Below are positions 3,170 through 46,347 of a DNA stretch of 64,000 nucleotides, piece by piece (positions within the stretch are counted from its first letter, which is position 1; each line of letters starts with the position of its first letter). Origin of the DNA: Chloroflexota bacterium (GTDB lineage Bacteria; Chloroflexota; Dehalococcoidia; Dehalococcoidales; JACPPQ01); assembly GCA_016190925.1 (NCBI GenBank), contig JACPPQ010000109.1:1614-65613 (forward strand), read 5' to 3'. The notes below the pieces were generated by a model that was not told the DNA's origin, did no database searches, and saw only the letters and a program-made list of their open reading frames with translations. Made by a program: the position numbers and the translations under genes.

Positions 3170-3357
3170 ACCTTCCCTTGGGAAAAAGCTTTAGCGAATA
3201 GCGCGAGCTGCAGGGGATAGTCATTTGCCGTTATTAAGCTCCGAATGTCTGATAATGGACATCCCGGGGCTTATTGCGAATTGATAAACTGGTGGCGTTC
3301 CTGCGTATACCGGTTATCGGTTTACTCAGAAAAATGGTATTGATTAACCCTATCTCC

Positions 3358-3542
3358 TTTACGTTAAGTAAACGCTCTGCGCTCTTGGCGCAGGGTAAAA
3401 AAATACAGTTTTCCAAAAGGACGTCCGCCTCAGGTGGATGGCCGCACGTAGAGCTTGCCTGAGCCTGCCCTGAGAGAAGCCGAAGGGTACCTGATACGGG
3501 GGTCAATGCCCTGCCCGCCTCTGGCGGGCGGAATTGCTTTAC
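3358..3542 (+). repeat. Composite hairpin-mosaic repeat, copy 1 (ends in GGAATTGCTTTAC)
   Basis: This copy aligns by eye with 4904..5111, 33307..33484 and, for the 3' half only, 61244..61347. It contains the hairpins CTGCGC-n5-GCGCAG, CGTCCGCC-TCA-GGTGGATG and CCCGCC-TCT-GGCGGG. Confidence 0.85.
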
Positions 3543-3625
3543 GAGCTGTTTGAAAAGTAAAAAGATTTGTGACTTGCCCTCTTTATTTCCCTCTCTCGAA
3601 AACAGGAAGGGAGAGCATTTTTTCT

Positions 3626-3748
3626 GAAGAGGGGCGTAATCCCCTCTTCAACACCCCATATTCGGACAACCTCAAGAATTTTAGAAGAGGGTTTGCACCC
3701 CTCTGGACGCCTCGACTTTTCATTGTTCGTGTGTGCGCCTCAGGCGCA
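3626..3748. repeat. Further hairpin modules in the dctP-dctQ spacer
   Basis: GAAGAGGGG-cgtaat-CCCCTCTTC lies at 3626..3649. AGAGGG-n7-CCCTCT follows near 3686. TGCGCC-TCA-GGCGCA lies at 3734..3748, and its 20-mer GTGCGCCTCAGGCGCATGGA recurs at 54245..54264. Confidence 0.8.
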
Positions 3749-3755
3749 TGGATAA

Positions 3756-4799
3756 TTACTTTACAAAGAGTTGTCTTAGTTTGTCGTAAGTTTGCTGATT
3801 GACATTCTTCTTCAAGACCGCCCACCTTGATTCGTAGGCAAGATTAAGATACGATTTTGTATCTTCAGGGGAGAAGGTGATAGGCTGCATGCCTTTTTCC
3901 ACTATTGTTTTCTTCGCGGCTTTGGCCAGATTGTCCGGCCGTGAAGGGTCTGCCTCCAATTTTGCTGCCTCATTCACCAGTATGTCTTGCAAGTTCTTTG
4001 GGAGCTTATTGAATCGGTCCATGTTTATATAGGTCGATGTATTAGTGTAGTAGAATGGGTAGTCAATCCAGTATTTGACCACTTCATACCATTTGTTCTG
4101 CACTGTCAGGTCGTAGGTCATAACATAGCCGTCAATCAGTTTGGTTTGCAGGCTGGTGTAAATGTCACCAAAACCTACATTGAGGGGGGTGACGCTCAGG
4201 GCATTTAAGAACGGGGTATAAGTCGGCGTGGTGCGCATCTTTAGCCCGGCTAACTCTTTGGGAGTCTTTACCTGGGGATTCAGGAATATGGAGAACATGG
4301 CCTCGGTGTTAGTGGCAATCATCCCCAGCAAGTATACCTTTGCCCTCTCCTTGAAAAGGTCGCGGATATAGGCATACCCGCCGGCCTGCCGATTTTCCCA
4401 CGATTTATACGAGGAGATAGAAATGGCCAAAGTCTCCGGCACAACATATTCCCATTCATCGGTGAAGCTGAAGAGCATATCGATTGTACCGGAACGCACT
4501 GCCTCAGTCTGGTTTGCTCTGGGGATAGCCTCCGGCCCGCCGACGATGTCAATAACAAGCTGCCCGTTAGACGCTTTCTTGACATTATCAACAAAATCAT
4601 CGGCGCTGAGCATCGTCGCTGTATGGGCGGGCAAAACGGTTACCGCTTTCAGCACTATCGGAGCCGCGGTTGGCGCGGGCGCAGGTGCTGGTTTTGGCGT
4701 GGCCGTGGGTGCCGGAGCCGGGGTTCGTGTACAGCCTGCCAGAACAAGCACCGCTGCCAGCGCTAAGGTCAGAATCAGGATTACAGTTTTCATTTTCAT
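3756..4799 (-). CDS. dctP: TRAP substrate-binding lipoprotein (DctP family) with a Pro/Ala/Thr linker
   Basis: The track ORF is 3756..4811. I prefer the ATG at 4799 (M5) because GGAGGGG lies 5 nt upstream of it. The protein has a signal peptide with lipobox VLAGC followed by TPAPAPTATPKPAPAPAPTAAP. The mature domain is DctP-like. Confidence 0.85.
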   Translation of the reverse strand: MKMKTVILILTLALAAVLVLAGCTRTPAPAPTATPKPAPAPAPTAAPIVLKAVTVLPAHTATMLSADDFVDNVKKASNGQLVIDIVGGPEAIPRANQTEAVRSGTIDMLFSFTDEWEYVVPETLAISISSYKSWENRQAGGYAYIRDLFKERAKVYLLGMIATNTEAMFSIFLNPQVKTPKELAGLKMRTTPTYTPFLNALSVTPLNVGFGDIYTSLQTKLIDGYVMTYDLTVQNKWYEVVKYWIDYPFYYTNTSTYINMDRFNKLPKNLQDILVNEAAKLEADPSRPDNLAKAAKKTIVEKGMQPITFSPEDTKSYLNLAYESRWAVLKKNVNQQTYDKLRQLFVK

Positions 4800-4903: not shown

Positions 4904-5111
4904 TTTACGAAGTAAACGCCCTGCGGTCTCTGCCGCAGGGTTAAAATATATAGGGTTTCCAAAGGGACGTCCGCCTCAGGCGGATGGCTTGCCTCCGCTG
5001 AAGCTTTAGCGCAAGCAGGCCGCACGCAGAGCTTGCCCCGTTCACAGTTTGCCCCGTACCTGATACGGGGGTCAACGCCCTGCCCGCCTCTGGCGGGCGG
5101 AATTGCTTTAC
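4904..5111 (+). repeat. Composite hairpin-mosaic repeat, copy 2
   Basis: Its hairpins are CCCTGCGG-n6-CCGCAGGG, CGTCCGCC-TCA-GGCGGATG, CCCCGTA-cctga-TACGGGG and CCCGCC-TCT-GGCGGG. It ends in GGAATTGCTTTAC, and its last bases overlap the stop codon of the minus-strand gene 5108..5380. Confidence 0.85.
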
Positions 5112-5380
5112 AGGTACTTCTCTACGGGATTGGGAAGTTTTTCCAGAATCTTGATTCTCATGGGTTCAGGTATGATAGATTCGTCATAATCCTTCACCCA
5201 TAAAACATCACCTTCAGGTAGTTTGGCCGGGTCCCTGGAGAATTGAGCTTTAACATATATCCGCTCCAGGGTTTTGTGGTCTTTTATTTCGACGTTATTA
5301 ATCTGGAATATCTGCCTGTTCTCAAAGTCTGCCGCCTTTCCGCTATCACGGATGTCTATCATAGTGGCTTCCCATTCCAT
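5108..5380 (-). CDS. Small Cys-free protein (90 aa), paralog of 6953..7216; candidate UbiD accessory subunit
   Basis: It lies immediately downstream of UbiD-2 on the same strand. It shares the block VKAQFSRDPAKLPEGDVLWVK with VKAILSSKPGELPGGDTLWIR in the other small ORF. I recognise no known family. Confidence 0.6.
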   Translation of the reverse strand: MEWEATMIDIRDSGKAADFENRQIFQINNVEIKDHKTLERIYVKAQFSRDPAKLPEGDVLWVKDYDESIIPEPMRIKILEKLPNPVEKYL

Positions 5381-7280: not shown

Positions 7281-7382
7281 GTATAGATGCTAACTTGTTT
7301 GACTATCGATTATCTGCCAGACATAAGCGTAAATTATTGTAAGACTAATACCATATCCCCCTACCTTACTTTGCCTACACTG
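7281..7382 (-). promoter_or_regulatory. Conserved TGTAGG-box upstream element, copy a (read on the minus strand)
   Basis: The reverse complement reads TGTAGGCAAAGTAAGGTAGGGGGATATGGTATTAGTCTTACAATAATTTACGCTTATGTCTGGCAGATAATCGATAGTCAAACAAG. It closely matches copies b and c and sits upstream of the small-protein/UbiD-2 operon. Confidence 0.7.
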
Positions 7383-7564
7383 TTTTCCAAGCGTCGATAC
7401 CAAAATTACGCGGACTAACGGAAAGGGGTAACTAGGAAGGGGTCGCTGGTCATAGACATGTTCAGACGTCGGTCATACCGCTACTATCTTTGAGAATTGT
7501 TGGGGTCTTTGGATTCTGGGGAAGTCTAATAGTGGAAAAGAATAAATTTTAATTTTGGCATTAG

Positions 7565-8770: not shown

Positions 8771-8909
8771 AAATTTGCCTTCGAGGTATATTACATCGAC
8801 TTTCTACTGCACGGCAAGCATTATTGTCTCAAAACCGGCATTTCGTTTAATAAAGCGATTCCAGGTGAAATCATTCATGACAGGCACACTTCATCTGATG
8901 TGAAAGTGG

Positions 8910-9017
8910 TGTAGGCAAAGTAAGGTGGGGAACAATGGTATTAACCCTACAATAATTTACGCCGATGTCTGGCAGATAATCAGTGGTCAAAGAGGTTACT
9001 TTAAGGTACTAAGCATT
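8910..9017 (+). promoter_or_regulatory. Conserved TGTAGG-box upstream element, copy b
   Basis: The sequence is TGTAGGCAAAGTAAGGTGGGGAACAATGGTATTAACCCTACAATAATTTACGCCGATGTCTGGCAGATAATCAGTGGTCAAAGAGGTTACTTTAAGGTACTAAGCATT. TGTAGG at 8910..8915 can pair with CCTACA at 8946..8951. Confidence 0.7.
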
Positions 9018-9094
9018 GGGAATATGAGATATTCTGGTCGGAATACCAGGCTGGATTATTATCCCAGGCAGAACAAAGGAAGGAGAATCGAGTT

Positions 9095-10279
9095 ATGAGA
9101 ACGAGAATAAGGACAATCCTCATCGCGTGTTTGGGACTGGTTGTAACGGGAGTGCTTCTGGCAGGGTGTGCCGCGCCAGCCCCAACTCCAACTCCCGCAC
9201 CCGCGCCCAAACCTGCGCCTACGACTGCACCGGCGCCAGCAACTACACCCAAACCTCCGGCACCTGCACCTCCGGCCACACCAAAACCCACTCCACCGCC
9301 AGCCCCGGCACCGGTAAGCGCAGCAGAGTTTTACCGGAATAATCCTGCAACTATTTATGTTGGCTATGGGGCTGGTGGTGGGGCCGACTATGCTACCCGC
9401 ACGTTCGCTTCTTTCTGGAAAGAGGTCACCGGCGGTACCATGGTGGCCAAGAATATGGAAGGTGCATCTGGGATGGCATTGGCCAATTGGATGTACAAAA
9501 CGGCCAAACCGGATGGTCTTACCATAGGGCTACTATATAGCGGCGCCTCTTTGACAGGCCCGGTGCTTTTCGCAAAGTCCGGTGTCGAGTTCGACCTGCA
9601 GAAATTCATATATATCGGCTCGTTTTATCAGGATATGCCCGGGCTTGCCATCAGCACTAAGCTGCCATATACCTCCCTGGATGAGTTGCGGAAAGTTAAA
9701 GGTCTGAAAATCGGGACTGTGGCGTTAAGAGACATAAACGCGCTGGCGGCAGCCCTGGCCATTGAGTTTCTTGGTCTGCAGGATGCCAGGATTGTTGCCG
9801 GCTACTCCGGTACGCCGGAGATGTTTCTGGCTGTGGGCAGGGGTGAGATAGATGCCGTTTCATATACCGCCGCTACAATTCTGCGTGAGCGTGGAGCCGG
9901 GACGGGATATTTTAAGCCAATATGGGTCGTGATGGCTGAGCAAAGGTCTCCGGCTTTCCCCGATGCACCAACGCTTGGCGAGTTAGTAAAGATCTCCCCA
10001 TCGGACGCACCATTGTTAGAACTCCTGTCAGCTATGGCATCGTATCCGGTAATCTTTGCCCCGCCAGGGGTACCCCAGGACCGGGTTGAATTTCTACGCG
10101 CTACTTTTGACAAAATGTTTTCCAATGAAACCTTTGTGCAACAGATGAAGAAGAATTTTCCGGTGTGGACTAAGCCTGTTAGCGGGGTAAACGAGACTAA
10201 AAACATTGAGCGTGTACTAAAGGTATCCAAGGTTGACATAGACAGAGGAAACGCTTTGATAGACAAATACTCACGCTGA
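9095..10279 (+). CDS. tctC: Tripartite tricarboxylate transporter substrate-binding lipoprotein (TctC/Bug family)
   Basis: This 394-aa ORF has lipobox LLAGC followed by a ~50-aa Pro/Ala/Thr linker. The mature part contains GYGAGGGADYATR...NMEGASGMALANW...KPDGLTIG, which is typical of Bug/TctC proteins. Confidence 0.85.
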   Translation: MRTRIRTILIACLGLVVTGVLLAGCAAPAPTPTPAPAPKPAPTTAPAPATTPKPPAPAPPATPKPTPPPAPAPVSAAEFYRNNPATIYVGYGAGGGADYATRTFASFWKEVTGGTMVAKNMEGASGMALANWMYKTAKPDGLTIGLLYSGASLTGPVLFAKSGVEFDLQKFIYIGSFYQDMPGLAISTKLPYTSLDELRKVKGLKIGTVALRDINALAAALAIEFLGLQDARIVAGYSGTPEMFLAVGRGEIDAVSYTAATILRERGAGTGYFKPIWVVMAEQRSPAFPDAPTLGELVKISPSDAPLLELLSAMASYPVIFAPPGVPQDRVEFLRATFDKMFSNETFVQQMKKNFPVWTKPVSGVNETKNIERVLKVSKVDIDRGNALIDKYSR

Positions 10280-10384
10280 CAACTAAGGCGTCTACTCCCG
10301 GCCGAAAGCATATCTTCTGAGTAAGGGGATGCCCTCGGTAAGATTGTCCAGGGCATCCCCTGGAGCAGGGTGAGGTAAGAGCGG

Positions 10385-11899
10385 ATGGCAGTAGAGGCTT
10401 TTCTTCAAGCCTTACAAAATTTCAGGGATTTAGACCTCCTTCTTTTCATGTTCGTCGGGTCAATTATCGGAATCGTATTTGGCCTTATTCCGGCTATTGG
10501 CAGTCTGACGGCGATGGCTCTCATTATACCCTTCACCTTCATGATGCCGCCGATGAATGCCATCCCCCTTTTGCTTGCGTTAACCAGCGGCGCCATTACT
10601 GCCGGCTCAATAACCTCTATTTTGCTCAATATCCCCGGAACGGGTGTCAATGTGGCAACTCTTATCGATGGTTTTCCGATGAACCAGAAAGGTCAAGCTG
10701 GACGTGCCTTAGGAGCAGCTCTGGTGAGTTCTGGAATGGGCGGGGTTTTTTCCGTATTTCTGGCCTTTGCCATAATACCGCTCGTATTGCCTATGGTGAT
10801 GGCGCTCCGTTCAGCAGATATGGTCTTCGTGATACTCTTGGGAATAACCTTTATCGGTGTTCTTGGGACAGGCTCCACACTCAAAGGTCTAATCAGCGGA
10901 GGAATCGGGCTGCTAATTTCTTTCATTGGATATCAAGCGTCAACAGGAGCGTCACGCTTCACCTTCGGAGCTAACTATCTGTATGATGGTATCCCCTTGC
11001 TCCCTGTGATTTTAGGCATATTCGGCTTGCCGGAAATGATTACTCTGGCAGCAAAAGGTGGCGCCATCGCTAAAGCAGGAGCCAACGTTAAAGGAGTGCG
11101 AGATATATTTGAAGGAGGGAAGGACGTATTTCGCCACTTTTTCTTGTGGATGCGTAGCACTATTTTAGGTTACATTATCGGCATCGTTCCGGGTGTGGGA
11201 GCGTCGGTAGCCCAGTTCGTAGCTTATGGGCAAGCACGGCAGACTTCAAGACATCCTCAGAAGTTCGGTACTGGCACTGTCGAAGGTGTTATTGCTCCGG
11301 AAAGCGCCAATAATGCGGTTCAGGGCGGGGCATTATTAACCATGCTGGCATTGGGTATACCGGGAAGCCCTGATACGGCGATTCTATTGGGCGCGTTACT
11401 ATTGATGAATGTTATACCCGGTCCACAAATGATGACCGCTCAGCTTGACCTATCGCTTACGCTTTTGTTAATCGTTATCGGCGCTAACATTATAGCTGCG
11501 AGCGTTTGTCTGATACTGGCACCAAATCTGGCTAAAGTAGCGTATATTCCTGGTCGTATTCTCGTTCCTTTGGTGATAGCAATAATATTCATCGGGGCTT
11601 ATGTTCATCGGGAGTCACTTAATGATGTGGTTGTAACCATCGCTTTCGGCATAGTTGGATTAGCGATGAGGAATTTTGGTTTTAGCAGACCCTCACTGTT
11701 ATTGGGCCTTATCCTGGGAACTCTGTTCGAGCACTATCTTTTCCTTGCGCTTGCAGCATCTGGCCCGCTATTCTTCGTGAGACCTATCAGCCTGGTTCTA
11801 ATTGTTATTAGTATAGCTGCTATTTTCCAGGGACAAATAAGAGGCCTGTTCGGAAATCGATTTAGAAGGCAAGCTAAGACGTATGAAACTAAAGGGTAG
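10385..11899 (+). CDS. tctA: Tripartite tricarboxylate transporter large permease (TctA family)
   Basis: This is a 504-aa polytopic ORF placed between tctC and a small four-helix ORF. Length and hydrophobic pattern fit TctA. Confidence 0.85.
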   Translation: MAVEAFLQALQNFRDLDLLLFMFVGSIIGIVFGLIPAIGSLTAMALIIPFTFMMPPMNAIPLLLALTSGAITAGSITSILLNIPGTGVNVATLIDGFPMNQKGQAGRALGAALVSSGMGGVFSVFLAFAIIPLVLPMVMALRSADMVFVILLGITFIGVLGTGSTLKGLISGGIGLLISFIGYQASTGASRFTFGANYLYDGIPLLPVILGIFGLPEMITLAAKGGAIAKAGANVKGVRDIFEGGKDVFRHFFLWMRSTILGYIIGIVPGVGASVAQFVAYGQARQTSRHPQKFGTGTVEGVIAPESANNAVQGGALLTMLALGIPGSPDTAILLGALLLMNVIPGPQMMTAQLDLSLTLLLIVIGANIIAASVCLILAPNLAKVAYIPGRILVPLVIAIIFIGAYVHRESLNDVVVTIAFGIVGLAMRNFGFSRPSLLLGLILGTLFEHYLFLALAASGPLFFVRPISLVLIVISIAAIFQGQIRGLFGNRFRRQAKTYETKG

Positions 11900-12347
11900 C
11901 TCATATTGCTATATCGGGGTTATGGGCATTGCTGCGGCAGTCATAATTCTGGCGTTGCCTATGGAATCCTTGAAGCCCAAATTGCTTCCTTTAATTTTAG
12001 GAGGCATCGTTTTTGTTCTATCGGCAGCAGGTCTCTGGCGGGACCTTTTTGTGCAAAACAATAAACCCGATGGTGAGACAAAAAAGGATGTCGATTCGGA
12101 AGTCGCCGATGCAAGATTGGGCGGCTATTTAGCCATCGGAGTATGGATAGCGGGCTTTTTCCTGGCCATTTATTTGGTCGGTTTTACCATAGCTACTCTA
12201 TTGTTCGTCCTGGCCTATATTAAAGCGCACGGCGCGAAATGGCTAACCGCTATTATCTTTACCATTATTACTTTAGCTGTTGTATATGGTGTATTCGAGG
12301 TAGTTTTGAAAATGAGCTTATATAAAGGACTATTTTTTGCTTTTTAG
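11883..12347 (+). CDS. tctB: Tripartite tricarboxylate transporter small subunit (TctB family)
   Basis: This 154-aa ORF has about four hydrophobic helices and overlaps the tctA end by 17 nt. The C-A-B gene order differs from the usual C-B-A. Confidence 0.7.
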   Translation: MKLKGSSYCYIGVMGIAAAVIILALPMESLKPKLLPLILGGIVFVLSAAGLWRDLFVQNNKPDGETKKDVDSEVADARLGGYLAIGVWIAGFFLAIYLVGFTIATLLFVLAYIKAHGAKWLTAIIFTIITLAVVYGVFEVVLKMSLYKGLFFAF

Positions 12348-12426: not shown

Positions 12427-14037
12427 ATGGCATACTACAGGGACTTGAGAGAATACCTTAAAGTCCTGGAATCCAAAGGAAAGCTTGTCAGGATAAACCG
12501 GGAGATAAACAAGGATACCGAGCTTATGCCATTGGTCAGATGGCAATTTCGTGGGCTTCCAGAGGAGCAAAGGAAAGCCTTCATCTTCGATAATGTGAAA
12601 GATGCAAAGGGGAAAAAGTACGATATGCCGGTAGTGGTGGCCGCTCATGCTCCATCCAGAGAGGTCTACGCACTGGCCATGATGTGCGCGCCTGACAAGA
12701 TTATTGAGCGCTGGACGGAGGGCCAGCTTCATCCCATAGAACCTGTAGTGATAGAGAGCGGGCCAGTCCATGAGAATATTCATCAGGGTGACGAGCTTAT
12801 TACATGGGGTGGTCTGGGACACCTCCCGGTACCCATTTCAACGCCAGGATTCGATAACGCTCCTTATTTGACTTGCTCCAACTGGGTAAGCAAAGACCCG
12901 GACACTGGCATAAGGAACATGGGCATTTACCGGGGTATGTTGAAAAGCGCTACCAGGCTGGGGATACAGTGCGACCAGGGTAAGCATCTGCGCATACACT
13001 GGGAAAAGTGCCGGAACAAAGGGATTCCATTGCAGGTTGCGGTAGTTGTCGGGGCGAGCCCTAACCTGGGATTTGTTGGAGCGGCACATATACCGTACGG
13101 TGTGGATGAATTCGCAATCGCCGGTGGCCTCAGCGGAGAACCGATTAAGCTGGTAAAGTGCAAGACGGTGAACATCGAGGTCCCCGCTACGGCAGAGATA
13201 GTCATAGAGGGTGAAATGCCTACGGATTCTATGGAGAAAGAGGGACCCTTCGGAGAGTTCACCGGCTATATGGGAGCCGAGGGGGTCTACCCCTATTTCA
13301 ACGTCAAGTGCATTACGCATCGTAACGATGCAATTTACACGGCCTTTATCAGCCAATTTGCACCGAGCGAGAGCAGCAAGCTGAGGCAAATTTCCCAGGA
13401 AGGTGTCTGGTATAAGCTCCTGAAGCATGACTTGAATAATCCGGGCGTACTGAGATGTGCCTTTCACGAGAACGCCAGCGGGAGTTCCGCTGCCCTCCTT
13501 GTGATACAGCTCAAGAAAGCGCATCCCTTCGATGCATGGCATGCCCTGGACGGGGCGGCTGCCTTCACCCAGAGCTGGCCCAGGATAATAATAGCGGTTG
13601 ACGAAGACATCGACCCGGAGGATGCTGATTCGGTGAACTGGGCGCTCAGCTTCAGGATGGAACCACATAGAGATTTGCGCGTGGTTCAGGGGAAAGCCTA
13701 TAACCTGGACCAGGCGAGCAATCCGCCATGGACACCCCAGGCAGAAAGGTTTTACCCATCGCCGAACGGAAGCTCGGTCTTGTTGATAGATGCCACCAGA
13801 AAGTGGCCGTACCGGCCGGTTTCACTGCCCGCCAGGAAATTCATGGAAAGGGCAAAGCAAATCTGGGAAGAAGAAAAGCTTCCCAGGCTAATCCCACGGT
13901 CTCCCTGGTTTGGCTACTCACTGGGACAGTGGACTGATGAGAACAAGGAAGAGGCCGAGCTGGCCCTTAATGAAGAACACTACCAGACAGGCGAAAAGAT
14001 AGCCAGGCAAAGGACTCAGCTTGGCAACTCTGAATAA
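12427..14037 (+). CDS. UbiD-family decarboxylase/carboxylase, paralog 3 (long C-terminal tail)
   Basis: This 536-aa ORF has an AAGGAG ribosome-binding site. The N-terminus reads MAYYRDLREYLKVLESKGKL, and the motifs GIRNMGIYRGM and EGPFGEFTGYMG are present. Confidence 0.9.
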   Translation: MAYYRDLREYLKVLESKGKLVRINREINKDTELMPLVRWQFRGLPEEQRKAFIFDNVKDAKGKKYDMPVVVAAHAPSREVYALAMMCAPDKIIERWTEGQLHPIEPVVIESGPVHENIHQGDELITWGGLGHLPVPISTPGFDNAPYLTCSNWVSKDPDTGIRNMGIYRGMLKSATRLGIQCDQGKHLRIHWEKCRNKGIPLQVAVVVGASPNLGFVGAAHIPYGVDEFAIAGGLSGEPIKLVKCKTVNIEVPATAEIVIEGEMPTDSMEKEGPFGEFTGYMGAEGVYPYFNVKCITHRNDAIYTAFISQFAPSESSKLRQISQEGVWYKLLKHDLNNPGVLRCAFHENASGSSAALLVIQLKKAHPFDAWHALDGAAAFTQSWPRIIIAVDEDIDPEDADSVNWALSFRMEPHRDLRVVQGKAYNLDQASNPPWTPQAERFYPSPNGSSVLLIDATRKWPYRPVSLPARKFMERAKQIWEEEKLPRLIPRSPWFGYSLGQWTDENKEEAELALNEEHYQTGEKIARQRTQLGNSE

Positions 14038-14076
14038 CCAATAACCTGGACCCGACATTGTAATCCTTAAAATTGA

Positions 14077-14184
14077 TGTAGGCAAAGCAAGGTAGAAAAT
14101 AATAGTATTAGTCTTACATCAACTTACGCCGATGTCTGGTAGATAACGATAGTCAAAGAGATTAGTTTTAAGGTACTAAGCATT
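14077..14184 (+). promoter_or_regulatory. Conserved TGTAGG-box upstream element, copy c
   Basis: The sequence is TGTAGGCAAAGCAAGGTAGAAAATAATAGTATTAGTCTTACATCAACTTACGCCGATGTCTGGTAGATAACGATAGTCAAAGAGATTAGTTTTAAGGTACTAAGCATT. It is collinear with copy b up to the start codon of the next gene. Confidence 0.7.
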
Positions 14185-14256
14185 ATGGACATATCTCATT
14201 CGGATATAACCTGGAGAATATGAGACCCAGGTGCAGACACAGAAAGGAGAAATCGT

Positions 14257-15378
14257 ATGAAAAATGGAATAAAGACAATCTTCATCGTGTGTTTAGGTTT
14301 AATCACCACAGTAGCACTTCTTGCTGGATGTGCCGCACCAGCAACCACCCCTGCTCCCGCGCCTAAACCAGCACCTGCTCCGGCAACAACGGCTGCTCCA
14401 GCGCCGAAGCCTTCGCCCAGTCCGGCTCCCGGGCCAGCAACAGTTTGGACGTTTGCCATCCATAGAGGCACTAATTCTATGGAGCTGGCTTATACGCCAA
14501 ATCCACGCTTCCAGGACATGATAGCAAAAGCAACCGGTGGCCGGCTGAAACTCGATACCAAAGTGGAAATATTTCCGCCCAATGAGGTCATAAACGCGGT
14601 AATTGATGGGCGAATAGACATGGGATTGCAGAGACTGGATTATGTCTCCGGGACCTTCCCTCTTTGGGGTTTTGGCTCTCTTCCATTCTTCTTTTCAAAC
14701 TATCATTACGAATATGAAGCAGCACTAAACGACCCCCGCATGATTCAACTACTGCAGAAAAGCTATGGAGAATCCGGCCTGTTTTATCTATTTGACACTT
14801 CTGGCACCGGAATCGAATCCATTTGGTCCAAAAAGCCTATCGCTACGCTCGACGATCTCAAGGGCGTTAAAGTAAGGGCCTCCGGCTTGCTTACCACAAG
14901 GGCGTTACAGCTTCTGGGTGCGGCACCCTTAACCACAGCCCCGGGAGAAATAGTCGATGCAATGCAAAAGGGACTGGTTGATGCTGTAGCTTCGGGCATG
15001 GGATTCGGTCTCTTCCTGGGGCTGGCCGATGTTTCCAAGTATGTTAATTCCTGGCCGATAACCGAAGTGTTTCCGGGTTCTGTGGTAGTCAACATGAAAA
15101 AATGGAATGCCTTACCCGATGACCTGAAGCAGATAGTAATCAATGTGGCGAAAGAGGTACAGGGGCAGGTAGTTCTTGCTGTTGATGTTGAATGGAGGAA
15201 GACCCTCGCTAGCCTTCAGGCTGCGAAAATGCAGGTCATAATACCTGACAAAGCCCACATACAAAAAGCGAGAGAGCTTACTAAACCTGCAATTGATGAG
15301 TGGGTTAAGTTGGCTGGTCCTTACGCCCCAGAGCTCCTAAGCATTGCTTCGCAATATGCCAGTGGGGCGAAAAAATAG
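14257..15378 (+). CDS. Orphan TRAP-type (DctP-like) substrate-binding lipoprotein
   Basis: This 373-aa ORF has lipobox LLAGC and a Pro/Ala linker. The mature domain contains GGRLKLDTKVEIFPPNE...GRIDMG...GSLPFFF, which is DctP-like. No dctQM genes are adjacent. Confidence 0.75.
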   Translation: MKNGIKTIFIVCLGLITTVALLAGCAAPATTPAPAPKPAPAPATTAAPAPKPSPSPAPGPATVWTFAIHRGTNSMELAYTPNPRFQDMIAKATGGRLKLDTKVEIFPPNEVINAVIDGRIDMGLQRLDYVSGTFPLWGFGSLPFFFSNYHYEYEAALNDPRMIQLLQKSYGESGLFYLFDTSGTGIESIWSKKPIATLDDLKGVKVRASGLLTTRALQLLGAAPLTTAPGEIVDAMQKGLVDAVASGMGFGLFLGLADVSKYVNSWPITEVFPGSVVVNMKKWNALPDDLKQIVINVAKEVQGQVVLAVDVEWRKTLASLQAAKMQVIIPDKAHIQKARELTKPAIDEWVKLAGPYAPELLSIASQYASGAKK

Positions 15379-15391
15379 TGAAAAAGGAAAC

Positions 15392-15457
15392 ACATCAGGC
15401 CGCATCTCGATACCTTGTAAAAAGCAACTTTTCAGGGTGGTTGGTGCGGCCTGATGT
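15392..15457 (+). terminator. 13-bp perfect inverted repeat downstream of the binding-protein gene (possible terminator or processing structure)
   Basis: ACATCAGGCCGCA at 15392..15404 pairs with TGCGGCCTGATGT at 15445..15457, followed by CCATCTTTCC. The 40-nt loop is long for a classical intrinsic terminator. Confidence 0.35.
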
Positions 15458-15742
15458 CCATCTTTCCAAGTTGTCCGGGATAAGTCAAATTAAGCAGGGC
15501 AAATACTGAGAGAGCGGCAGAATTCAATTATGTTTGCTCTCGGCGTTTCTTACCGCTTACCCGCTTCTTCCAAAGGTGTTTAGCTAGAAAAGCTCTCCGG
15601 ATTGATAGCTGTTGGGAGAAATGAGGTTTGAAAAAGAGAAATTCTGGACACGTCCCTGGATTGTTCCCCGTAGAAATCTCCATACTTAAAAGCAAGGGAT
15701 AACTATGAAAAGGATGATGCACCGGCACACGAGGGAGGTACA

Positions 15743-17842
15743 GTGGCATATATAATAGGAATTGATACCGGAGGGACTTTCACGGATATAGTGGTCTTGA
15801 GTGAAGATGATGGAAAAGTCACAACTGACAAAGCTCCATCAACACCAAGGGATTTTTCTATCGGGGTGATAGATGCGGTCGAAAACGCAGCCCGGCAGCT
15901 CGGTATGTCCGGATTCCAACTTCTGAATAATACGGCTATCTTTGCTATTGGCACGACAGTAGCAACTAATATGTTGTTGACACACACGGGTACAAAAACC
16001 GGTCACATCACCACTAAAGGGTTTGAAGATACATTACTCATCGGCAGGGTAAATCAGAAGATAGCCGGGCTGAGTGGTATCGATGTCCTGGACCTGGCCC
16101 GTTTAGACAAAGCAAGGCCTGTTATTCCCAGAAATCTGATTAAAGGGGTGACCGAACGAATTGATTATAAGGGGGAGGTTATTGTCCCGCTGGTTTACCA
16201 GGAGACTGCACAGGTTGTCAGGGACCTGGTCGAAAAAGAACATGTGGAGGCGATTGCCGTTGTTCTCCTGTGGTCATTTATGAATCCAGAGCACGAGCAG
16301 GAAATCAAAAAGATTATCAATCAAATGTACCCGCAAATCTATGTCACCATATCAAGCGAACTGGTGCCCAAAATAAAGGAATATGAAAGAGCCGCTACAA
16401 CGTCAATCAATGCTTACGTAGGGAAAGGCACATCAAGGTATATCTCATCATTGGGAACGAGACTAAAGGAGAATGGCCTCAAGTTGCCTCCTATGATAAT
16501 GCAGAATATGGGCGGCTTTACAACCGCTGACGAAGCATGCAGGAAACCCGTTCTTACCTGCAATTCAGGACCAGCAGGTGGCGTGGTCGGCGCTCAGGCT
16601 CTGGCAAATCTCTTGGGCTATAAAAACATCATAACTACCGATATGGGTGGTACCAGTTTTGACGTAGGACTGGTGGTTAACGGAGTTTCCCAGTTTGCCA
16701 GTCAATTAATACTTGATAAATACGTCACTTTAAATCCAACCATCGATGTAACCTCCATTGGTGCTGGCTCGGGAAGTATTGCCTGGATAGAGCCGGATAC
16801 CGGCCTGTTAAAAGTCGGTCCGCAAAGCGCCGCAGCTGACCCGGGCCCTGTTTGTTATGAAAAAGGGGGGACAGAACCAACGGTAACAGACGCCAATATT
16901 GTGTTAGGCAGGTATCCCGGCCACCTCCTTGGGGGAAAAATCAAACTTAATAAAGAGAAATCATTCTCAGCTATTAAAACAAAGATTGCCGACCCATTAA
17001 AAATGGACGTTGCAACGGCGGCCATCAGCATCATCGATATAGTGGACTCGCACATGGCGGACTTGATAAGAAAGGTCACTGTAGCGAAAGGCTATGACCC
17101 TGGCGATTTTGTCATTTTTTCCTTTGGAGGAGCTGGAGCCGCCCATGTTGGCTCATATGGGTATGTGGGTTCGAAGACAGCAATCATACCTAACTTCGCG
17201 TCAGAATTCTCCGCATTTGGGATATGTTCATCTGATGTTATTCACATTAATGAGCTATCGGAGCCTATGCGATACCCGTTCGGCACGGAACGAATTACTG
17301 CAATTTATCAAGACCTGGAGAACAAGGCGCTTAAAGACTTTCAAGCAGAAGGGTTTAGCCGAGAGAACATACTTTTGACTCGTTTGGTTGATTTAAGGTA
17401 CATCGGCCAAATACAAGAGATGGCAACACGTGTTCCCGCCGGCGATTTGAATCATCAAGACATGGAAAGGGTCATCGATGAATTTGAAGCAGCATATGAA
17501 CTGAAATACGGGAAAGGCTCGGCCTATAAGATAGCGGGAATCGAGGCGACAACGTACCGAGTCCACGGAGTAGGCAAAATAATCAAGCCATCTCCGAAAA
17601 AACGCAGACGAGGTCCCGCTAATTCATCAGCGGCTATAAAAGAGAAACGGGACGTTTATTTCAGAGAATGCGACGGTTTTCGTCTTATCAATGTATATGA
17701 CCGGGGGAAACTACAACCTGGCAATATTGTGGAAGGGCCTGCCATTATAGAGGCGGTTGATACCACAGTGGTCGTTCATCCCGGGCAGACCGTTAAGTTA
17801 GATGGATATTCCAACATGATAATGCAACTGAGTCAGGGGTGA
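15743..17842 (+). CDS. Hydantoinase/oxoprolinase A family subunit (HyuA; acetone/acetophenone carboxylase beta-like)
   Basis: This 699-aa ORF starts with GTG after GAGGGAGG. The N-terminus IGIDTGGTFTD is the hallmark of the HyuA ATPase fold. Confidence 0.9.
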   Translation: MAYIIGIDTGGTFTDIVVLSEDDGKVTTDKAPSTPRDFSIGVIDAVENAARQLGMSGFQLLNNTAIFAIGTTVATNMLLTHTGTKTGHITTKGFEDTLLIGRVNQKIAGLSGIDVLDLARLDKARPVIPRNLIKGVTERIDYKGEVIVPLVYQETAQVVRDLVEKEHVEAIAVVLLWSFMNPEHEQEIKKIINQMYPQIYVTISSELVPKIKEYERAATTSINAYVGKGTSRYISSLGTRLKENGLKLPPMIMQNMGGFTTADEACRKPVLTCNSGPAGGVVGAQALANLLGYKNIITTDMGGTSFDVGLVVNGVSQFASQLILDKYVTLNPTIDVTSIGAGSGSIAWIEPDTGLLKVGPQSAAADPGPVCYEKGGTEPTVTDANIVLGRYPGHLLGGKIKLNKEKSFSAIKTKIADPLKMDVATAAISIIDIVDSHMADLIRKVTVAKGYDPGDFVIFSFGGAGAAHVGSYGYVGSKTAIIPNFASEFSAFGICSSDVIHINELSEPMRYPFGTERITAIYQDLENKALKDFQAEGFSRENILLTRLVDLRYIGQIQEMATRVPAGDLNHQDMERVIDEFEAAYELKYGKGSAYKIAGIEATTYRVHGVGKIIKPSPKKRRRGPANSSAAIKEKRDVYFRECDGFRLINVYDRGKLQPGNIVEGPAIIEAVDTTVVVHPGQTVKLDGYSNMIMQLSQG

Positions 17843-17845
17843 GAA

Positions 17846-19699
17846 ATGCGTACGAAAAACAAAATCGACCCGGTAACCTTCGAGATTCTGAGACATAGGG
17901 TTGGCGCCATTAATGATGAGGGTGCTTCCAGCTTAATGTTAGTTTCGGGGTCACCGGTGGCCAGTGAGGTTCTCGACTTTAATACCGCCTTACTTAATGC
18001 CAAAGGAGAGGTAATCGTCATCGGCCCGTACATTCTGGAGCACGGTATCTCTCTGGAGCAAATTGTAAAGTACATTATCGCTAATTATCAGGATAACCCG
18101 GGAATTAATGAAGGCGACATGTTCTTGTGCAACGACCCGTATGTGGGAGCTCTCCATCAGAATGATGTCGCCCTGGTGGCGCCGATTTACTGGGAGGGGG
18201 AGCTAGTAGGTTGGACGGGGGTTGCGGTGCATCAGCAGGATGTTGGAGGGCCTGGCAAAGGACAGGTAAGCATAGGCGCAACTTCTATTTTTGAAGAGGC
18301 ACCTGTATTCCCACCCATTAAGCTTATAGAGAGAGGAATTATCCGAAAAGACCTTGAAGGAGAGTACTTCAAACGAAGCAGATTACCAGAGCGCCTCGGG
18401 CTGGACTTGAGGGCTATGACTGCTTCAAACAACGTTACGAGCAGACGTATTAGAGAACTTATTAAAGACCGAGGAATAGAAACCGTAAAATCGACATTCG
18501 ATGCCATCATAGATTATGTTGAAGTCAAGTTAAGAAGCAGATTAATGGAACTCCCTGATGGGACCTGGCGCCATACCGCTTACCTGGATTACGGAGACAA
18601 GATTTACCCCTGTAAGTTAACCATGACCAAGAAGAAAGACAAGCTAGTTTTTGACTTTACTGGGACAGCCGCCCAGGCGCCCGCCGTTATTAATTGCACT
18701 TATCCTGTCTTGCAGGCTATTGTCACGGGAGTTTTTATGATGTACCTGGGATACGGCATATTCCCGCCGAGTTCTGGAGCAGCAGGCAGGTGTCTTGAGG
18801 TAGTTTCTGAACCCGGTACGTTTGTCCATGCGATATGGCCAGCAGGTGTGAGTAAGGCGACCACTGGTGCAAGGTATTCCGTAATCGATGCCGGAAGTGT
18901 TTGTTTAGCTAAAATGCTGGCTGCCAGTGACAAGTACCGGGACCGCGTAATGGCTCCGTGGAGGAGCTCATCTATAATAGCGGACTTATTTGGTATCGAC
19001 CAGAGGGGTGCTTACTTTGGGGCCTCAATCCTGGACTTTATGGCGGGTGGCGCCGGTGCAAGGAGCTATAAAGATGGCATCGACACCGGAGGTCAACTGG
19101 GTGCTCCGGCAATCGCCATCGCTAACGTAGAAACGCACGAGTTCCGCTACCCGATGCTTTTTTTGTACCGGAAACAAGAAAGGGATACAGGCGGGCCTGG
19201 CAAATTCAGGGGAGGAGTGGCACTGGGGTATATGTGGATGCCCCATGACGTAGAGGAAATCTCCAATGCGGTTATTCACGCCATCGGTCTGCAATCGCCC
19301 AATGGTGTAGGTATTTATGGAGGTTATCCCAGCAGTACCCATGTAGTCTCCCTCAAAAGAAATACCAATATACTGGATATCTTCAGGGATGGGAAGCTAC
19401 CGGCAAGCCTGGATGAAATTGACGGCAAATTTGAGATACCTCCTCAACTTGTAGAAACATCTCTTAAGAAGAACGACATAATTGTGGGCCTGGGACAGGG
19501 GGGAGGTGGCTATGGAGACCCAATCGAGCGCGATGCCAGGTTAGTTGCCAACGATGTAACGAATGAGTTAGTTTCCAGAGAATGTGCCAGGGATATTTAT
19601 GGGGTAGTGCTCGACCCTCAAACACTCCAGCCAGACATAAAACAGACTGAGGAACGGAGGCTTGAAATAAAGAGGGAAAGGGCGGGGTGGCAAAAGTAG
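17846..19699 (+). CDS. Hydantoinase B/oxoprolinase family subunit (HyuB; carboxylase alpha-like)
   Basis: This 617-aa ORF starts 3 nt after HyuA. The N-terminus DPVTFEILRHRVGAINDEG is typical of HyuB. Confidence 0.9.
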   Translation: MRTKNKIDPVTFEILRHRVGAINDEGASSLMLVSGSPVASEVLDFNTALLNAKGEVIVIGPYILEHGISLEQIVKYIIANYQDNPGINEGDMFLCNDPYVGALHQNDVALVAPIYWEGELVGWTGVAVHQQDVGGPGKGQVSIGATSIFEEAPVFPPIKLIERGIIRKDLEGEYFKRSRLPERLGLDLRAMTASNNVTSRRIRELIKDRGIETVKSTFDAIIDYVEVKLRSRLMELPDGTWRHTAYLDYGDKIYPCKLTMTKKKDKLVFDFTGTAAQAPAVINCTYPVLQAIVTGVFMMYLGYGIFPPSSGAAGRCLEVVSEPGTFVHAIWPAGVSKATTGARYSVIDAGSVCLAKMLAASDKYRDRVMAPWRSSSIIADLFGIDQRGAYFGASILDFMAGGAGARSYKDGIDTGGQLGAPAIAIANVETHEFRYPMLFLYRKQERDTGGPGKFRGGVALGYMWMPHDVEEISNAVIHAIGLQSPNGVGIYGGYPSSTHVVSLKRNTNILDIFRDGKLPASLDEIDGKFEIPPQLVETSLKKNDIIVGLGQGGGGYGDPIERDARLVANDVTNELVSRECARDIYGVVLDPQTLQPDIKQTEERRLEIKRERAGWQK

Positions 19700-19723
19700 C
19701 TGAATTGTTCAGGAGGCATAAAA

Positions 19724-20005
19724 ATGCAGAGGGTCAATGAATACCTGGAAATTGTTGAAGAAGCTGGGGAAAAAGCCTTCCGCTGCAAATGTGGCTATAT
19801 ACTCGGTCCAGCGACTGATAACTACAAAACGTACGCTCTTAAATGCGAGTCCCCGCTTAAAAAAGCCGGCCCTAATGTGAATCCGTATAAAGTGGGTGGA
19901 GAAAAGTTTGTTTTCAGGGAGTTTTGCTGCCCCGGTTGTTATACTTTGCTTGGTACCGATATTGCATTAAGGGGAGAACCTCTTTTGCGGGATGTGGAAT
20001 TGTAA
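19724..20005 (+). CDS. Small Zn-ribbon protein resembling the acetone carboxylase gamma subunit
   Basis: This 93-aa ORF carries the Cys pairs CKCG and CCPGC. Its position directly after HyuA/HyuB matches the three-subunit carboxylase layout. It is shorter than a canonical gamma subunit. Confidence 0.55.
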   Translation: MQRVNEYLEIVEEAGEKAFRCKCGYILGPATDNYKTYALKCESPLKKAGPNVNPYKVGGEKFVFREFCCPGCYTLLGTDIALRGEPLLRDVEL

Positions 20006-27419: not shown

Positions 27420-29096
27420 GTGGTGGTATCAGAAACTTTGACGAGATGCATGCTACCTATGAATGGCATTCTAAATCCTCACGTCTGCCTGTTTTACCGG
27501 GCTCGACAGCAAGCGGATGACTTCTTATTGCCTTTCCTGGAAGAGGGACTGGAGAATAACGAAGTCTGCCTTTGGGTGAGCGATAGATGTCAGGAAGCCG
27601 AAGAAGCAGCGAGAAAGCGTATCCGCAATTTTGATATTCAACTGTCTCAAGGCCGGATAGATATTATCCCGCACACGTTGTTCTGCCTTGAGAATGAAGG
27701 CTTCAACCCGCGTATAGCACTTGCATGGTGGGTTGATAGAGTTAACCAATTATCGGATGAAGGATGCGGAAGCATCCGGATTATTTGCGATGCGGGCAGT
27801 ATCAATAAGAGACTTTGCTACATGCTGAGTGACCTTCAGGATACAATGAACCGCGATAGACAAATAAGTTCAATAGCCATTCTTTGTGTTCATTCTCTAC
27901 ACAACTGCACCACATCTCAATCGATGGAAATCGCAATGAGGCATGACCTGGCACTGGTTAAACGTGGACCTAAATGGAGCTTTATCAAGAGACGCCAGAG
28001 CAAACGTGTAGATGAAGTGGTCCAGCTCCAAAGTGAGATATTATCGAAAGCTCCTGCTGGAGCACTTATTGTGCAGAGGAGCGATAATACCATAATCTAC
28101 TGTAATGCGGAACTTGAGAAAATGTTTGGCTATGAACGAGGTGAATTGCTCGGTAAGAATGTAGCCATACTAAATGCGCCGTCTGGTGGAAAATCAGCCG
28201 AAGCTATTAGGGACGAAATTGTCGATGCGCTGGAAAAATGTGGTGATTGGAGCGGGGAGCTCAAGAACATAAAGAAGGATGGCACAATCTTTTACTGTCG
28301 CTCACGGGTCTCGACATCGCAGTCGTCGCGCTATGGAAAGGTTTCCATTGCATTCCACGCAGATATTACTGAGCGTAAGCGAGTAGCCGAGGAATTACAA
28401 AGGTCGCGTGATGAACTGCGCAATCTTTCCTTGCATTTGCAGTGCGTGAGGGAGGAAGAGAGGAAACTTGTGGCGCGTCGCATTCATGACGACCTGGGGC
28501 AGTCGCTGGCGGCTCTGCGAATGGAGCTGGCAGGGATAAGAGGAAGGCTACCGCCGGGTATCGATTCACTACACGAAAGGCTGGAAGAGGCCATAAGAGG
28601 TGTCGATGGTACTATCCAACAGGCAAGAGAAATTTCGACACAGTTGAGGCCGGGGATACTGGATGATTTTGGCCTTCTGGCTGCGATGGAATGGGAGGCA
28701 AGCGAGTTCCAGAGGCGCACCGGGACTCAGTGCGCAGTCAAGGGCAATCCCGGCATTGCCATCGGAAAGAACTGCGCTGCATCTATTTTTGAGATATTTC
28801 GTGAAGCTCTGACTAATATTGCTCAGCACGCCAACGCTACCAGGGTTACAACCTGTATCAAAGTTGAGGAGGGCAAATTGGTTCTTCAGGTCAGGGACAA
28901 CGGAAGAGGAATTACAGCCGAGCAGGTATCTTCTCCAAAATCGTTTGGCCTGCTGGGAGTGAAGGAGCGCGTACGTTTCTGGGGAGGAGAGACAAAGATA
29001 AAAGGTATCACAGGTAAAGGTACTAACTTGAAGGTAATAATCCCGGTAGGGAGCATTCAGGAGGACCACCATGATAAAGATGCTTGTTGCCGATGA
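27420..29096 (+). CDS. Sensor histidine kinase: MEDS-like N-terminal domain, PAS, HisKA_3, HATPase_c
   Basis: This 558-aa ORF starts with GTG after AGGAG; starts at 27423 or 27450 are also possible. The N-terminus HVCLFYRARQQADDFLLPFLEEGLENNEVCLWV resembles a MEDS domain. A PAS region follows, with an H-box at RRIHDDLGQSL and an ATPase domain at the C-terminus. Confidence 0.8.
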   Translation: MVVSETLTRCMLPMNGILNPHVCLFYRARQQADDFLLPFLEEGLENNEVCLWVSDRCQEAEEAARKRIRNFDIQLSQGRIDIIPHTLFCLENEGFNPRIALAWWVDRVNQLSDEGCGSIRIICDAGSINKRLCYMLSDLQDTMNRDRQISSIAILCVHSLHNCTTSQSMEIAMRHDLALVKRGPKWSFIKRRQSKRVDEVVQLQSEILSKAPAGALIVQRSDNTIIYCNAELEKMFGYERGELLGKNVAILNAPSGGKSAEAIRDEIVDALEKCGDWSGELKNIKKDGTIFYCRSRVSTSQSSRYGKVSIAFHADITERKRVAEELQRSRDELRNLSLHLQCVREEERKLVARRIHDDLGQSLAALRMELAGIRGRLPPGIDSLHERLEEAIRGVDGTIQQAREISTQLRPGILDDFGLLAAMEWEASEFQRRTGTQCAVKGNPGIAIGKNCAASIFEIFREALTNIAQHANATRVTTCIKVEEGKLVLQVRDNGRGITAEQVSSPKSFGLLGVKERVRFWGGETKIKGITGKGTNLKVIIPVGSIQEDHHDKDACCR

Positions 29097-29697
29097 CCAT
29101 GCGGTTGTCCGGAAGGGGCTGAAGGAGATAGTGGGAAATATCCCCCAATTAGTCGTAGCTGACGAAGCGTGCAACGGCGACGAGGTTATGCGAAAGGTGT
29201 GGCAAAACGATTATGACCTCCTCTTGCTGGATATTACCATGCCTGGTAGAAGTGGGCTTGAAGTACTGAAGGAAGTCAAGAACTTGAAACCGCAACTACC
29301 CATTCTGATACTCAGTATTCATCCTGAAGAGCATTATGCCGTGCGCGTCCTGAGAGCGGGAGCAAGCGGATATTTAAACAAGGAAAGCGCTCCGGACGAG
29401 TTGCGCTCTGCTATTGAGAAAGTAGCGGCTGGCGGGAAATATGTCAGCCCGATTGTGGCGGAAATTCTTGCCTCCGAACTGGTAGACAGCGAAAAAGCAG
29501 CTCATGAATCTTTATCCGACCGTGAATATGAAATTATGTGCATGGTAGCTACGGGCAAAACGGTAAAGCAGGCTGCGACAGAGCTCAAATTAAGTCCTAA
29601 GACTGTGAGCAGTTATATTCACCGTATTCTGGTCAAGATGAGAATGCGAAACAAGAGCCAGCTTACAAGATATGCTATCGAACATCTTCTAATATAA
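29071..29697 (+). CDS. NarL/FixJ-type response regulator (REC + LuxR HTH)
   Basis: This 208-aa ORF contains MLVADDH...LLLLDITMPG (receiver domain) and LSDREYEIMCMVATGKTVKQAATELKLSPKTVSSY (LuxR-type HTH). It overlaps the kinase gene by 26 nt. Confidence 0.9.
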   Translation: MIKMLVADDHAVVRKGLKEIVGNIPQLVVADEACNGDEVMRKVWQNDYDLLLLDITMPGRSGLEVLKEVKNLKPQLPILILSIHPEEHYAVRVLRAGASGYLNKESAPDELRSAIEKVAAGGKYVSPIVAEILASELVDSEKAAHESLSDREYEIMCMVATGKTVKQAATELKLSPKTVSSYIHRILVKMRMRNKSQLTRYAIEHLLI

Positions 29698-33286: not shown

Positions 33287-33306
33287 GTTCCATTACCTTT
33301 CGCACT

Positions 33307-33484
33307 TTTACGTTAAGTAAACGCCCTGCGCCAAGAGCGCAGGGTAAAAAATATACAGGGTTTCCAAAGGGACGTCCGCCTCAGGCGGATGGCCGCACGC
33401 AGAGCTTGCCCCGTTCACAGCCTGCCCCGTACCTGATACGGGGGTCAATGCCCTGCCCGCCTCTGGCGGGCGGAATTGCTTTAC
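33307..33484 (+). repeat. Composite hairpin-mosaic repeat, copy 3
   Basis: Its hairpins are CCCTGCGC-caaga-GCGCAGGG, CGTCCGCC-TCA-GGCGGATG, CCCCGTA-cctga-TACGGGG and CCCGCC-TCT-GGCGGG, ending in GGAATTGCTTTAC. By eye it is almost identical to copy 2 over the 3' part. Confidence 0.85.
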
Positions 33485-46345: not shown

Positions 46346-46347
46346 AC

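Follow-up and report, generated by a model that had tools for sequence, protein, structure and literature searches.

A repeated upstream element in a Chloroflexi catabolic island and a probable 5′ duplication that crosses the start codons of two binding-protein genes

How did two binding proteins of different families come to begin with similar DNA, and how far into the genes does the common part reach? The question is raised by a 64-kb stretch of Chloroflexi DNA (the window, all of which was analysed), in which tctC (9095–10279, + strand) encodes a TTT receptor of 394 aa and heads tctC-tctA-tctB-ubiD, and dctP (14257–15378, +) encodes a TRAP receptor of 373 aa, an orphan without DctQM. A first-pass annotation, whose quoted sequences and two N-termini are exact as written, had proposed that a cassette of promoter, leader and lipoprotein anchor, extending into a Pro/Ala linker, was recombined onto unrelated bodies. 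The comparisons described below suggest that the 5′ ends of tctC and dctP share an ancestry that is not shared by the bodies, with 5′ duplication or recombination as the best reading.

The bodies belong to different Pfam families. TctC matches PF03401 with 33.1 bits (gathering cut-off 27), and the TctA and TctB genes adjoin its gene; DctP matches PF03480 with 123 bits (gathering cut-off 23.4). TctC is 100% identical to the hypothetical protein HYX79_06440 of a Chloroflexi MAG, and DctP is encoded on the same contig of that MAG. The two mature domains had been described as different in family, which is correct, and as unrelated in fold, which goes too far: BLASTP of mature TctC against DctP is marginal (E = 0.02), and in a profile-profile comparison of the mature domains only, 194 columns align at 18% identity with E = 2.8e-5 and a probability of 74%, a probability that is inflated to 98.8% when the leaders are included. 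The bodies therefore appear to be remote relatives in different families. This agrees with the membership of both families in the periplasmic-binding-protein superfamily. The argument for a chimera would be unaffected by such remote relatedness, because the bodies are ~18% identical and the N-termini ~66%. The DNA coding for the mature parts is not similar in its first 300 nt (z = −0.4).

The upstream part of the similarity has a wider distribution. A search of the 64-kb window with nhmmer, using a profile built from the copies themselves, reveals an element of ~95–115 nt in four copies: a at 7286–7390 (−; E = 1.8e-31), b at 8899–9019 (+; E = 1.9e-37), c at 14066–14186 (+; E = 9.9e-35) and the diverged d at 60567–60641 (−; E = 1.2e-6). 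Of these, the first-pass annotation had described copies b and c only. A core pattern of 21 bases, TGTAGGNAAAG-N17-GTATTANNCNTACA, is matched exactly in all of them (7338–7379, 8910–8951, 14077–14118 and 60597–60638, respectively; four matches vs. zero expected by chance), and an inverted repeat, TGTARG-N30-CYTACA, is retained in every copy. Copies a, b and c are roughly equidistant at 78–82% identity and d is ~57% identical to them; despite identities of 57–82%, the invariant blocks stand at fixed spacing. The cores of b and c agree at 96 of 118 positions (81%, z = 31). Both contain a 14–15-nt segment, CTTTAAGGTACTAA, which copy a lacks and which makes up most of the 18-mer described below. 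That ~95–115 nt can be aligned end to end indicates that a whole 5′ region was probably copied, rather than that a motif arose by convergence.

Each copy is oriented toward the operon downstream of it, and the distance from the core to the first start codon is 163–199 nt in all four cases. The TGTAGG core of copy a begins 163 nt upstream of a small ORF (7216–6953, −) for a phenylphosphate-carboxylase-gamma-like protein (PF09662 by Pfam), which is followed by UbiD (6917–5451, −). Copy b lies in the divergent intergenic region between an MFS gene (8770–7565, −) and tctC, its core starting 185 nt upstream of the tctC ATG. Copy c starts 29 nt past the stop of the preceding UbiD gene (12427–14037), with its core 180 nt upstream of the dctP ATG, and the core of copy d begins 199 nt upstream of UbiD 60439–59000 (−), the first gene of an operon that, by Pfam, continues with an M20 peptidase and an FAD protein, a DctPQM set lying further downstream. 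The common orientation should not be overrated: the chance probability of finding it in four copies is 1 in 8, which counts against the weight of that argument.

The first genes of the four operons (for the PhenylP-gamma-like protein, TctC, DctP and UbiD) are non-homologous, and those behind copies a and d encode cytoplasmic, non-exported proteins. The proposal of a recombined cassette divides in two: a shared 5′ segment produced by duplication or recombination is upheld, and a cassette dedicated to lipoproteins is not. The operons are related in content. A UbiD-family gene is present in each of the four, a binding-protein-dependent transporter is carried by or adjoins three of them, and dctP heads a cluster for carboxylase subunits, isochorismatases, UbiD, an FMN reductase and a nitroreductase. 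The window as a whole is a catabolic island with at least seven UbiD-family genes, three TRAP receptors and one TTT receptor; it also encodes acetone/acetophenone-type carboxylase subunits (hydantoinase A, B, gamma), three aldehyde:ferredoxin oxidoreductases and isochorismatases. Candidate regulators in the window are a LuxR-type response regulator (29071–29697), accompanied by a MEDS-PAS histidine kinase, and a protein of the AsnC/Lrp type (33286–32822).

Between tctC and dctP the likeness extends beyond the element. Their 5′ regions form one continuous local alignment, 8903–9172 vs. 14070–14334 (score 110.5, z = 52), whose 3′ limit at 9172/14334 is the end of the extracted stretch. The collinearity reported earlier is borne out by this single alignment, with the qualification that the spacer is rearranged except for its last ~35 nt. 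The left edge is sharp, similarity being absent to the left of 8898/14065 (z = −0.6). An 18-mer, TTTAAGGTACTAAGCATT, at 9000–9017 (+) in copy b and 14167–14184 (+) in copy c is identical at all 18 positions; with up to three mismatches allowed, these are the only two matches in the window (0.02 expected). It is a candidate for the −10/transcription-start region or for a second operator. The spacers that follow, putative 5′ UTRs at 9018–9094 (+) for tctC and 14185–14256 (+) for dctP, carry the RBS AAGGAGAA at 9080–9087 and 14244–14251. Their similarity is weak (z = 3.4), and they are homologous but rearranged: GAATATGAGA occurs in both at shifted positions, and a small palindrome has its centre flipped. 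The final ~35 nt before the ATG (CCCAGG..CAGAMCAMAGRAAGGAGAA) are again collinear. Beyond the upstream element itself, the 18-mer, the rearranged spacer, the RBS region and codons 1–14 are common to the tctC/dctP pair only.

The homology crosses the start codon, as had been claimed. Codons 1–14 of tctC (9095–9136, +) match their homologous counterpart in dctP (14257–14298, +) at 33 of 42 nt. The 30-mers at 9106–9135 and 14268–14297 are identical at 26 positions and all four differences are transitions; in codons 5–12 the agreement amounts to 21 of 24 nt, with third positions identical in eight of eight codons although three of the eight amino acids differ. In codons 4–12, nine consecutive third positions are identical, for which a permutation test gives P = 0.010–0.016. 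Over the whole signal peptide (codons 1–25), 52 of 75 nt and 15 of 25 aa are identical (z = 17). Codons 15–25 hold the rest of the h-region and the lipobox LAGC in tctC (9137–9169, +; Cys25 at 9167–9169) and likewise the lipobox LAGC in dctP (14299–14331, +; Cys25 at 14329–14331). In codons 13–25, nine of 13 amino acids are identical but only three of 13 third positions, which is about the same-codon chance level from local codon usage. The third-position contrast between codons 5–12 and 13–25 gives p = 0.001 by Fisher's test, with a boundary that was picked after viewing the data. Both proteins have a basic n-region, a hydrophobic h-region and a lipobox of the form L-[AS]-[GA]-C (MRTRIRTILIACLGLVVTGVLLAG and MKNGIKTIFIVCLGLITTVALLAG, each followed by C), and both are predicted substrates of signal peptidase II.

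How much of this leader was transferred depends on how its second half is read. It is unlikely, in our judgement, that one block moved comprising the promoter, the full signal peptide, the lipobox and the Pro/Ala linker, that is, a lipoprotein-specific cassette with its junction in or after the linker. Amino-acid identity does run on to LLAGCAAPA (19/29), tctC/dctP leads a set of 55 lipoprotein-leader pairs taken in part from the window and in part from other Chloroflexi loci (14/21 aa, against a mean of 4.0 ± 1.8 aa, and 44/63 nt), and crossing over could plausibly have occurred in the repetitive DNA of the linker. The third positions after codon 12, however, are at chance, and the leaders of P0009, P0037 and P0052, unrelated receptors that come from three separate samples, reach 9–12/21 aa and 35–40/63 nt with an upstream z of about 0. 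The 9/13 identity of the lipobox half is matched by three other pairs among 465, two of which are unrelated proteins without upstream homology, and the proteins encoded behind two of the four copies are not secreted. The likeness of codons 15–25 exists at the amino-acid level only and, because unrelated Chloroflexi leaders reach similar identity, it is indistinguishable from convergence on a common leader type; a lipobox anchor in the transferred piece, as the first-pass annotation had it, is not demonstrable. The linkers, at 9170–9313 (+) in tctC and 14332–14439 (+) in dctP, are generic low-complexity Pro/Ala/Thr tethers. Their alignment score of 29.5 ranks about 13th of 55 lipoprotein-linker pairs from the window and other Chloroflexi loci. 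Such linkers are found on all four binding-protein lipoproteins of the window and, in both families, on essentially all homologues from Chloroflexi; those homologues that have a plain Sec-type signal instead (one annotated Desulfobulbaceae) have no linker. GCAAPAP and AGCAAPAP-like motifs recur on unrelated proteins. Since the linker likeness is generic, it is no evidence of recombination, and the place in the homology that had been assigned to the linker is not confirmed.

The opposite reading, in which only the non-coding element was duplicated and the signal-peptide likeness is due to convergence on a Chloroflexi leader type plus chance, is highly improbable. The same types of leader do turn up on unrelated Chloroflexi binding proteins, and leaders are short and compositionally constrained; an explanation by low complexity and generic composition would suffice for codons 15–25 and the linker, but it fails for codons 1–14. 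At an assumed baseline identity of 60%, the agreement at 21 of 24 nt in codons 5–12, where all eight third positions match and three of the eight amino acids differ, has a P of about 0.0035 by a binomial estimate. Furthermore, the leader likeness is contiguous with the collinear RBS region in the one local alignment of z = 52, whereas convergent control pairs have z ~ 0 upstream. Firm tctC/dctP homology thus appears to span ~8903–9136, and the 3′ junction would lie somewhere from codon ~14 to the end of the linker, with no finer placement because the similarity of the lipobox half and of the linker is generic. Of the breakpoints that alignment had been expected to locate, the left edge is placed at 8898/14065 and the 3′ junction is bracketed by this range. 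A third TRAP receptor (55619–54486) was considered as a diverged member of the leader family and was rejected, with a nucleotide z of 2.5–3.1 and protein scores the same as those of the fourth receptor.

In the reading that we consider probable, the element is a lineage-specific control region of a regulon and represents promoter reuse by 5′ duplication, with a tract in tctC/dctP that crosses the start codon. Regulator binding sites would lie in the element and the core promoter at its 3′ end or slightly beyond, and at least four operons of the catabolic island would be under common control via the element. It would have spread through duplication of 5′ regions (promoter reuse). In the case of tctC and dctP, the duplicated or exchanged tract would have taken along the 18-mer, the 5′ UTR and the RBS, together with ~14 codons or more. 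A fusion of this type may be tolerated because lipoprotein signal peptides are interchangeable in their N-terminal part and are cleaved off; for the cytoplasmic enzymes behind copies a and d, viable junctions would exist only upstream of the gene. The event is likely to be old because the three copies a–c lie at equal distances from one another (78–82%) and because agreement at synonymous sites falls to chance after codon 12. A single neutral duplication would not leave the spacer more diverged than codons 5–12, a point that counts against this reading and calls for patchy constraint; the conserved patches (the element, the 18-mer, the RBS region and codons 4–12) were probably kept by function, and the rest, including most of the spacer and the later synonymous sites, would have drifted. 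It is distinctly unlikely that codons 4–12 are held at the nucleotide level as a control site specific to both receptor genes and not for export; a site of this kind might be an operator that follows the promoter, or else a small-RNA or protein target at the translation-initiation region. The regulatory function of the element, the direction of transfer and the mechanism of spread are what we infer from these patterns.

The search for the promoter itself was a consensus scan and not a functional test. No canonical sigma-70 −35/−10 pair was found by it on the right strand inside or just after copies a–c, which counts against the control-region reading; at the 3′ end of copy d there is a 9/12 sigma-70 site. 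Sigma-54 and ECF-type promoters in the TTACGC...CTGGCAGATAA block were considered by inspection and discarded, the spacing and the −12 element being missing.

Two further explanations concern the nature of the element. That it is transcribed and acts as RNA, either as a riboswitch-like leader or as a small RNA of the four operons, is very unlikely. Its position 163–199 nt upstream of the start codons is a span possible for long leaders, invariant blocks alternate with variable ones, and a nested helix pair can be drawn. However, the leaders have no Rfam matches at the gathering threshold or at E ≤ 1, their folding energies are no better than those of shuffled sequence (z = +0.3, −0.1 and +1.3), and the four-copy consensus fold is weak (−7.1 kcal/mol) with a covariation term of ~0. 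Given the Rfam, folding and covariation negatives, a DNA-level element would be the better fit. The consensus fold also hinted at a long-range helix of the 18-mer with codons 11–14, in which one pair looked compensatory, but this helix was rejected: its duplex energies are no better than those of shuffles (p ~ 0.05–0.2), nor than those at 26 unrelated gene starts. It is highly improbable that we are dealing with a selfish, MITE- or REP-like miniature repeat that inserted between genes and has no regulatory role. The element is indeed repeated, intergenic and lineage-restricted, and copy c, and only it, has flanking arms (13 nt, 85% complementary). Yet there are no terminal inverted repeats or target duplications common to the four copies, all four are promoter-proximal in the same orientation to the downstream gene, and diverged copies (57–82%) with invariant blocks at fixed spacing point to constraint and not to recent transposition. 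Other REP-like repeat families are present in the window, an observation that can be counted on the side of a repeat.

Judged by public data, the control region that we favour seems to be private to the source lineage. Scans with two of its core patterns gave zero matches in 185,579 representative genomes and in JGI metagenomes, and nhmmer finds no copy in the TctC-homologue loci of other Chloroflexi MAGs, including one with a similar gene neighbourhood. Absence of the element from these genomes and metagenomes makes cross-species conservation unusable as functional evidence. A 30-position profile of the leader, searched against 1.84 billion representative proteins, returns TctC itself and one irrelevant internal match; this search misses proteins that stand behind a representative of ≥50% identity, as DctP itself does. 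The nearest homologues elsewhere, at ≤44% identity for TctC and ≤53% for DctP, bear different leaders. Within the 64-kb window the leader is not found on the other two binding-protein lipoproteins, the carriers being tctC and dctP only. The idea of an active or recurrent cassette therefore finds no support: there are just two members, about 80%/69% identical, with no other carrier among the 1.84 billion representative proteins. Faint leader resemblances exist among homologues of both TctC and DctP (an internal Cys in P0009 and in P0019/P0020), and since they occur on both sides the donor is not nameable.

These data have several implications. The TGTAGGNAAAG-N17-GTATTANNCNTACA motif and the ~115-nt profile provide a searchable handle on one probable uptake/UbiD-type (de)carboxylation regulon of at least four operons, and tctC/dctP is a clean example of promoter reuse with a copied tract crossing the start codon. 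For Chloroflexi in general, caution is advisable: linkers, lipoboxes and even h-regions recur across unrelated binding-protein leaders, and a recombination call from leader or linker likeness needs nucleotide-level and flanking evidence. Promoter reuse of the kind proposed here is fairly ordinary and does not change the general picture.

Several known systems are comparable in part. Putative mobile promoters consist, like the element, of very similar non-coding DNA upstream of non-homologous genes in one genome; their families average 92% identity and are mostly pairs (PMC3575422), and cases reaching into the coding region exist that were filtered out of the survey (Matus-Garcia, Nijveen & van Passel 2012; PMC3575422). 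When the numeric criterion of that survey (PMC3575422) is applied within −150 to −50, it links a with b (86.3% over 51 nt), a with c (83.3% over 60 nt) and b with c (84.5% over 71 nt), and gives no match of copy d to copies a–c. As to non-paralogy, the first gene behind copy a is clearly non-homologous to those behind b and c, while the bodies behind b and c are remotely similar with their first ~14 codons homologous, a pair that the survey filters might drop. Unlike the published families, the element has four copies at 57–86% identity, all in one catabolic island, and one pair reaches into signal-peptide codons. Promoter activity is putative both for the element and for the published mobile promoters.

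A closer parallel for the leader is provided by the erp genes of Borrelia burgdorferi with their 'upstream homology box', where promoter/operator DNA and a leader are joined to independently derived mature parts, which has been interpreted as recombination of one promoter/leader/localisation sequence with diverse bodies (PMC10016077). The likeness lies in the conserved promoter/operator DNA upstream (81% between b and c, z = 31) and in leaders on different bodies that match over codons 1–14. The erp genes, however, form a large, prophage-borne, frequently recombining surface-protein family in which conservation includes the lipobox and sorting residues (PMC10016077), whereas tctC and dctP are just two chromosomal genes for nutrient receptors, the event behind their likeness is presumably old, conservation can be demonstrated no further than about codon 14, and the upstream element is found in front of non-lipoprotein operons as well. 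In place of multiple members with diverse mature parts, the 64-kb window has two genes; codons 1–14 of their leaders are specific at the nucleotide level, and from codon 15 to 29 and in the linker the likeness does not exceed that of unrelated leaders.

In the vpma and vsp genes of Mycoplasma, the 5′ UTR and signal-peptide region are conserved and the remaining CDS is without significant homology (PMC2268961). Those genes are phase-variable through site-specific inversion and serve antigenic variation; at tctC/dctP no recombinase, inversion sites or silent copies were seen. Ordinary regulons should be considered as well. Typical regulon operators are motifs of 15–30 bp that arise independently. 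The element resembles them in its constant position and orientation across operons and in the functional relatedness of the downstream genes, and it differs from them in being alignable over ~95–115 nt.

In the receptor genes tctC and dctP, all third positions of codons 5-12 (9107-9130 and 14269-14292, respectively) are identical, and yet three of the eight encoded amino acids differ. After codon 12 the relationship is reversed: the amino acids are kept while the third positions are randomised. Since third positions agree where amino acids diverge, and the opposite holds further downstream, the pattern suggests a constraint at the nucleotide level, or a conversion patch, within the coding sequence. 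In the spacers that precede the two start codons, that of tctC carries the palindrome GAATATGAGATATTC (9021-9035); at the matching place of the dctP spacer (14190-14201) stands ATATCTCAT, with its centre flipped relative to GAATATGAGATATTC, and GAATATGAGA (14216-14225) is displaced 29 nt downstream when the tctC spacer is taken as reference. These differences suggest that a hairpin loop was flipped or that a short stretch was rearranged.

Similarity between leaders can be judged against three receptors that differ in family and in sample of origin, P0009 (L006:896), P0052 (L007:2485) and P0037 (L008:76), which serve as a useful negative control. Their leader h-regions are near-identical ('..LVIGLI.AGC', 9-12 of 21 amino acids and 35-40 of 63 nt), with no homology upstream of their genes. 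They seem to represent a leader type that arose by convergence in Chloroflexi. Antisense open reading frames of more than 90 amino acids on the minus strand over the Pro/Ala linkers of tctC (9001-9291) and dctP (14196-14471) are almost certainly artefacts, because repeats of GCN and CCN codons leave the opposite strand without stop codons.

At least seven genes in the window belong to the UbiD family, including tandem paralogues (61411-62844 and about 63315 to the window end, 1904 nt apart) with a nucleotide identity of 71-75%. Three aldehyde:ferredoxin oxidoreductase paralogues are found at 43477-45288, 46324-48228 and 50236-52116, two of them preceded or followed by 4Fe-4S ferredoxin genes. 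Dispersed between operons are intergenic repeats of a REP-like family that form GC-rich hairpins, GCCCGCCTCTGGCGGGC and GCGCCTCAGGCGC among them, with copies up to 97% identical to each other (3343-3543, 4956-5112, 33292-33485 and 61287-61328, with further sites at 3733-3759, 54246-54272, 54187-54214 and 60886-60913). The sole candidate regulators among the annotated open reading frames of the window are a histidine kinase of the MEDS-PAS-HisKA_3 type, accompanied by a LuxR/NarL-type response regulator (27420-29697), and an AsnC/Lrp regulator (32822-33286, minus strand).

The receptor gene dctP, at the start of the region 14257-20005, encodes an orphan TRAP receptor with no adjoining DctQM. 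The genes that follow it, after a 365-nt gap, code for hydantoinase A, B and gamma subunits resembling those of acetone/acetophenone carboxylases; DctQM is found downstream of each of the two other TRAP receptors of the window. The TTT operon (9095-12347) has the gene order tctC-tctA-tctB, the start of tctB (11883) overlapping the end of tctA (11899), and the same order occurs in two loci of other Chloroflexi, L001 and L002.
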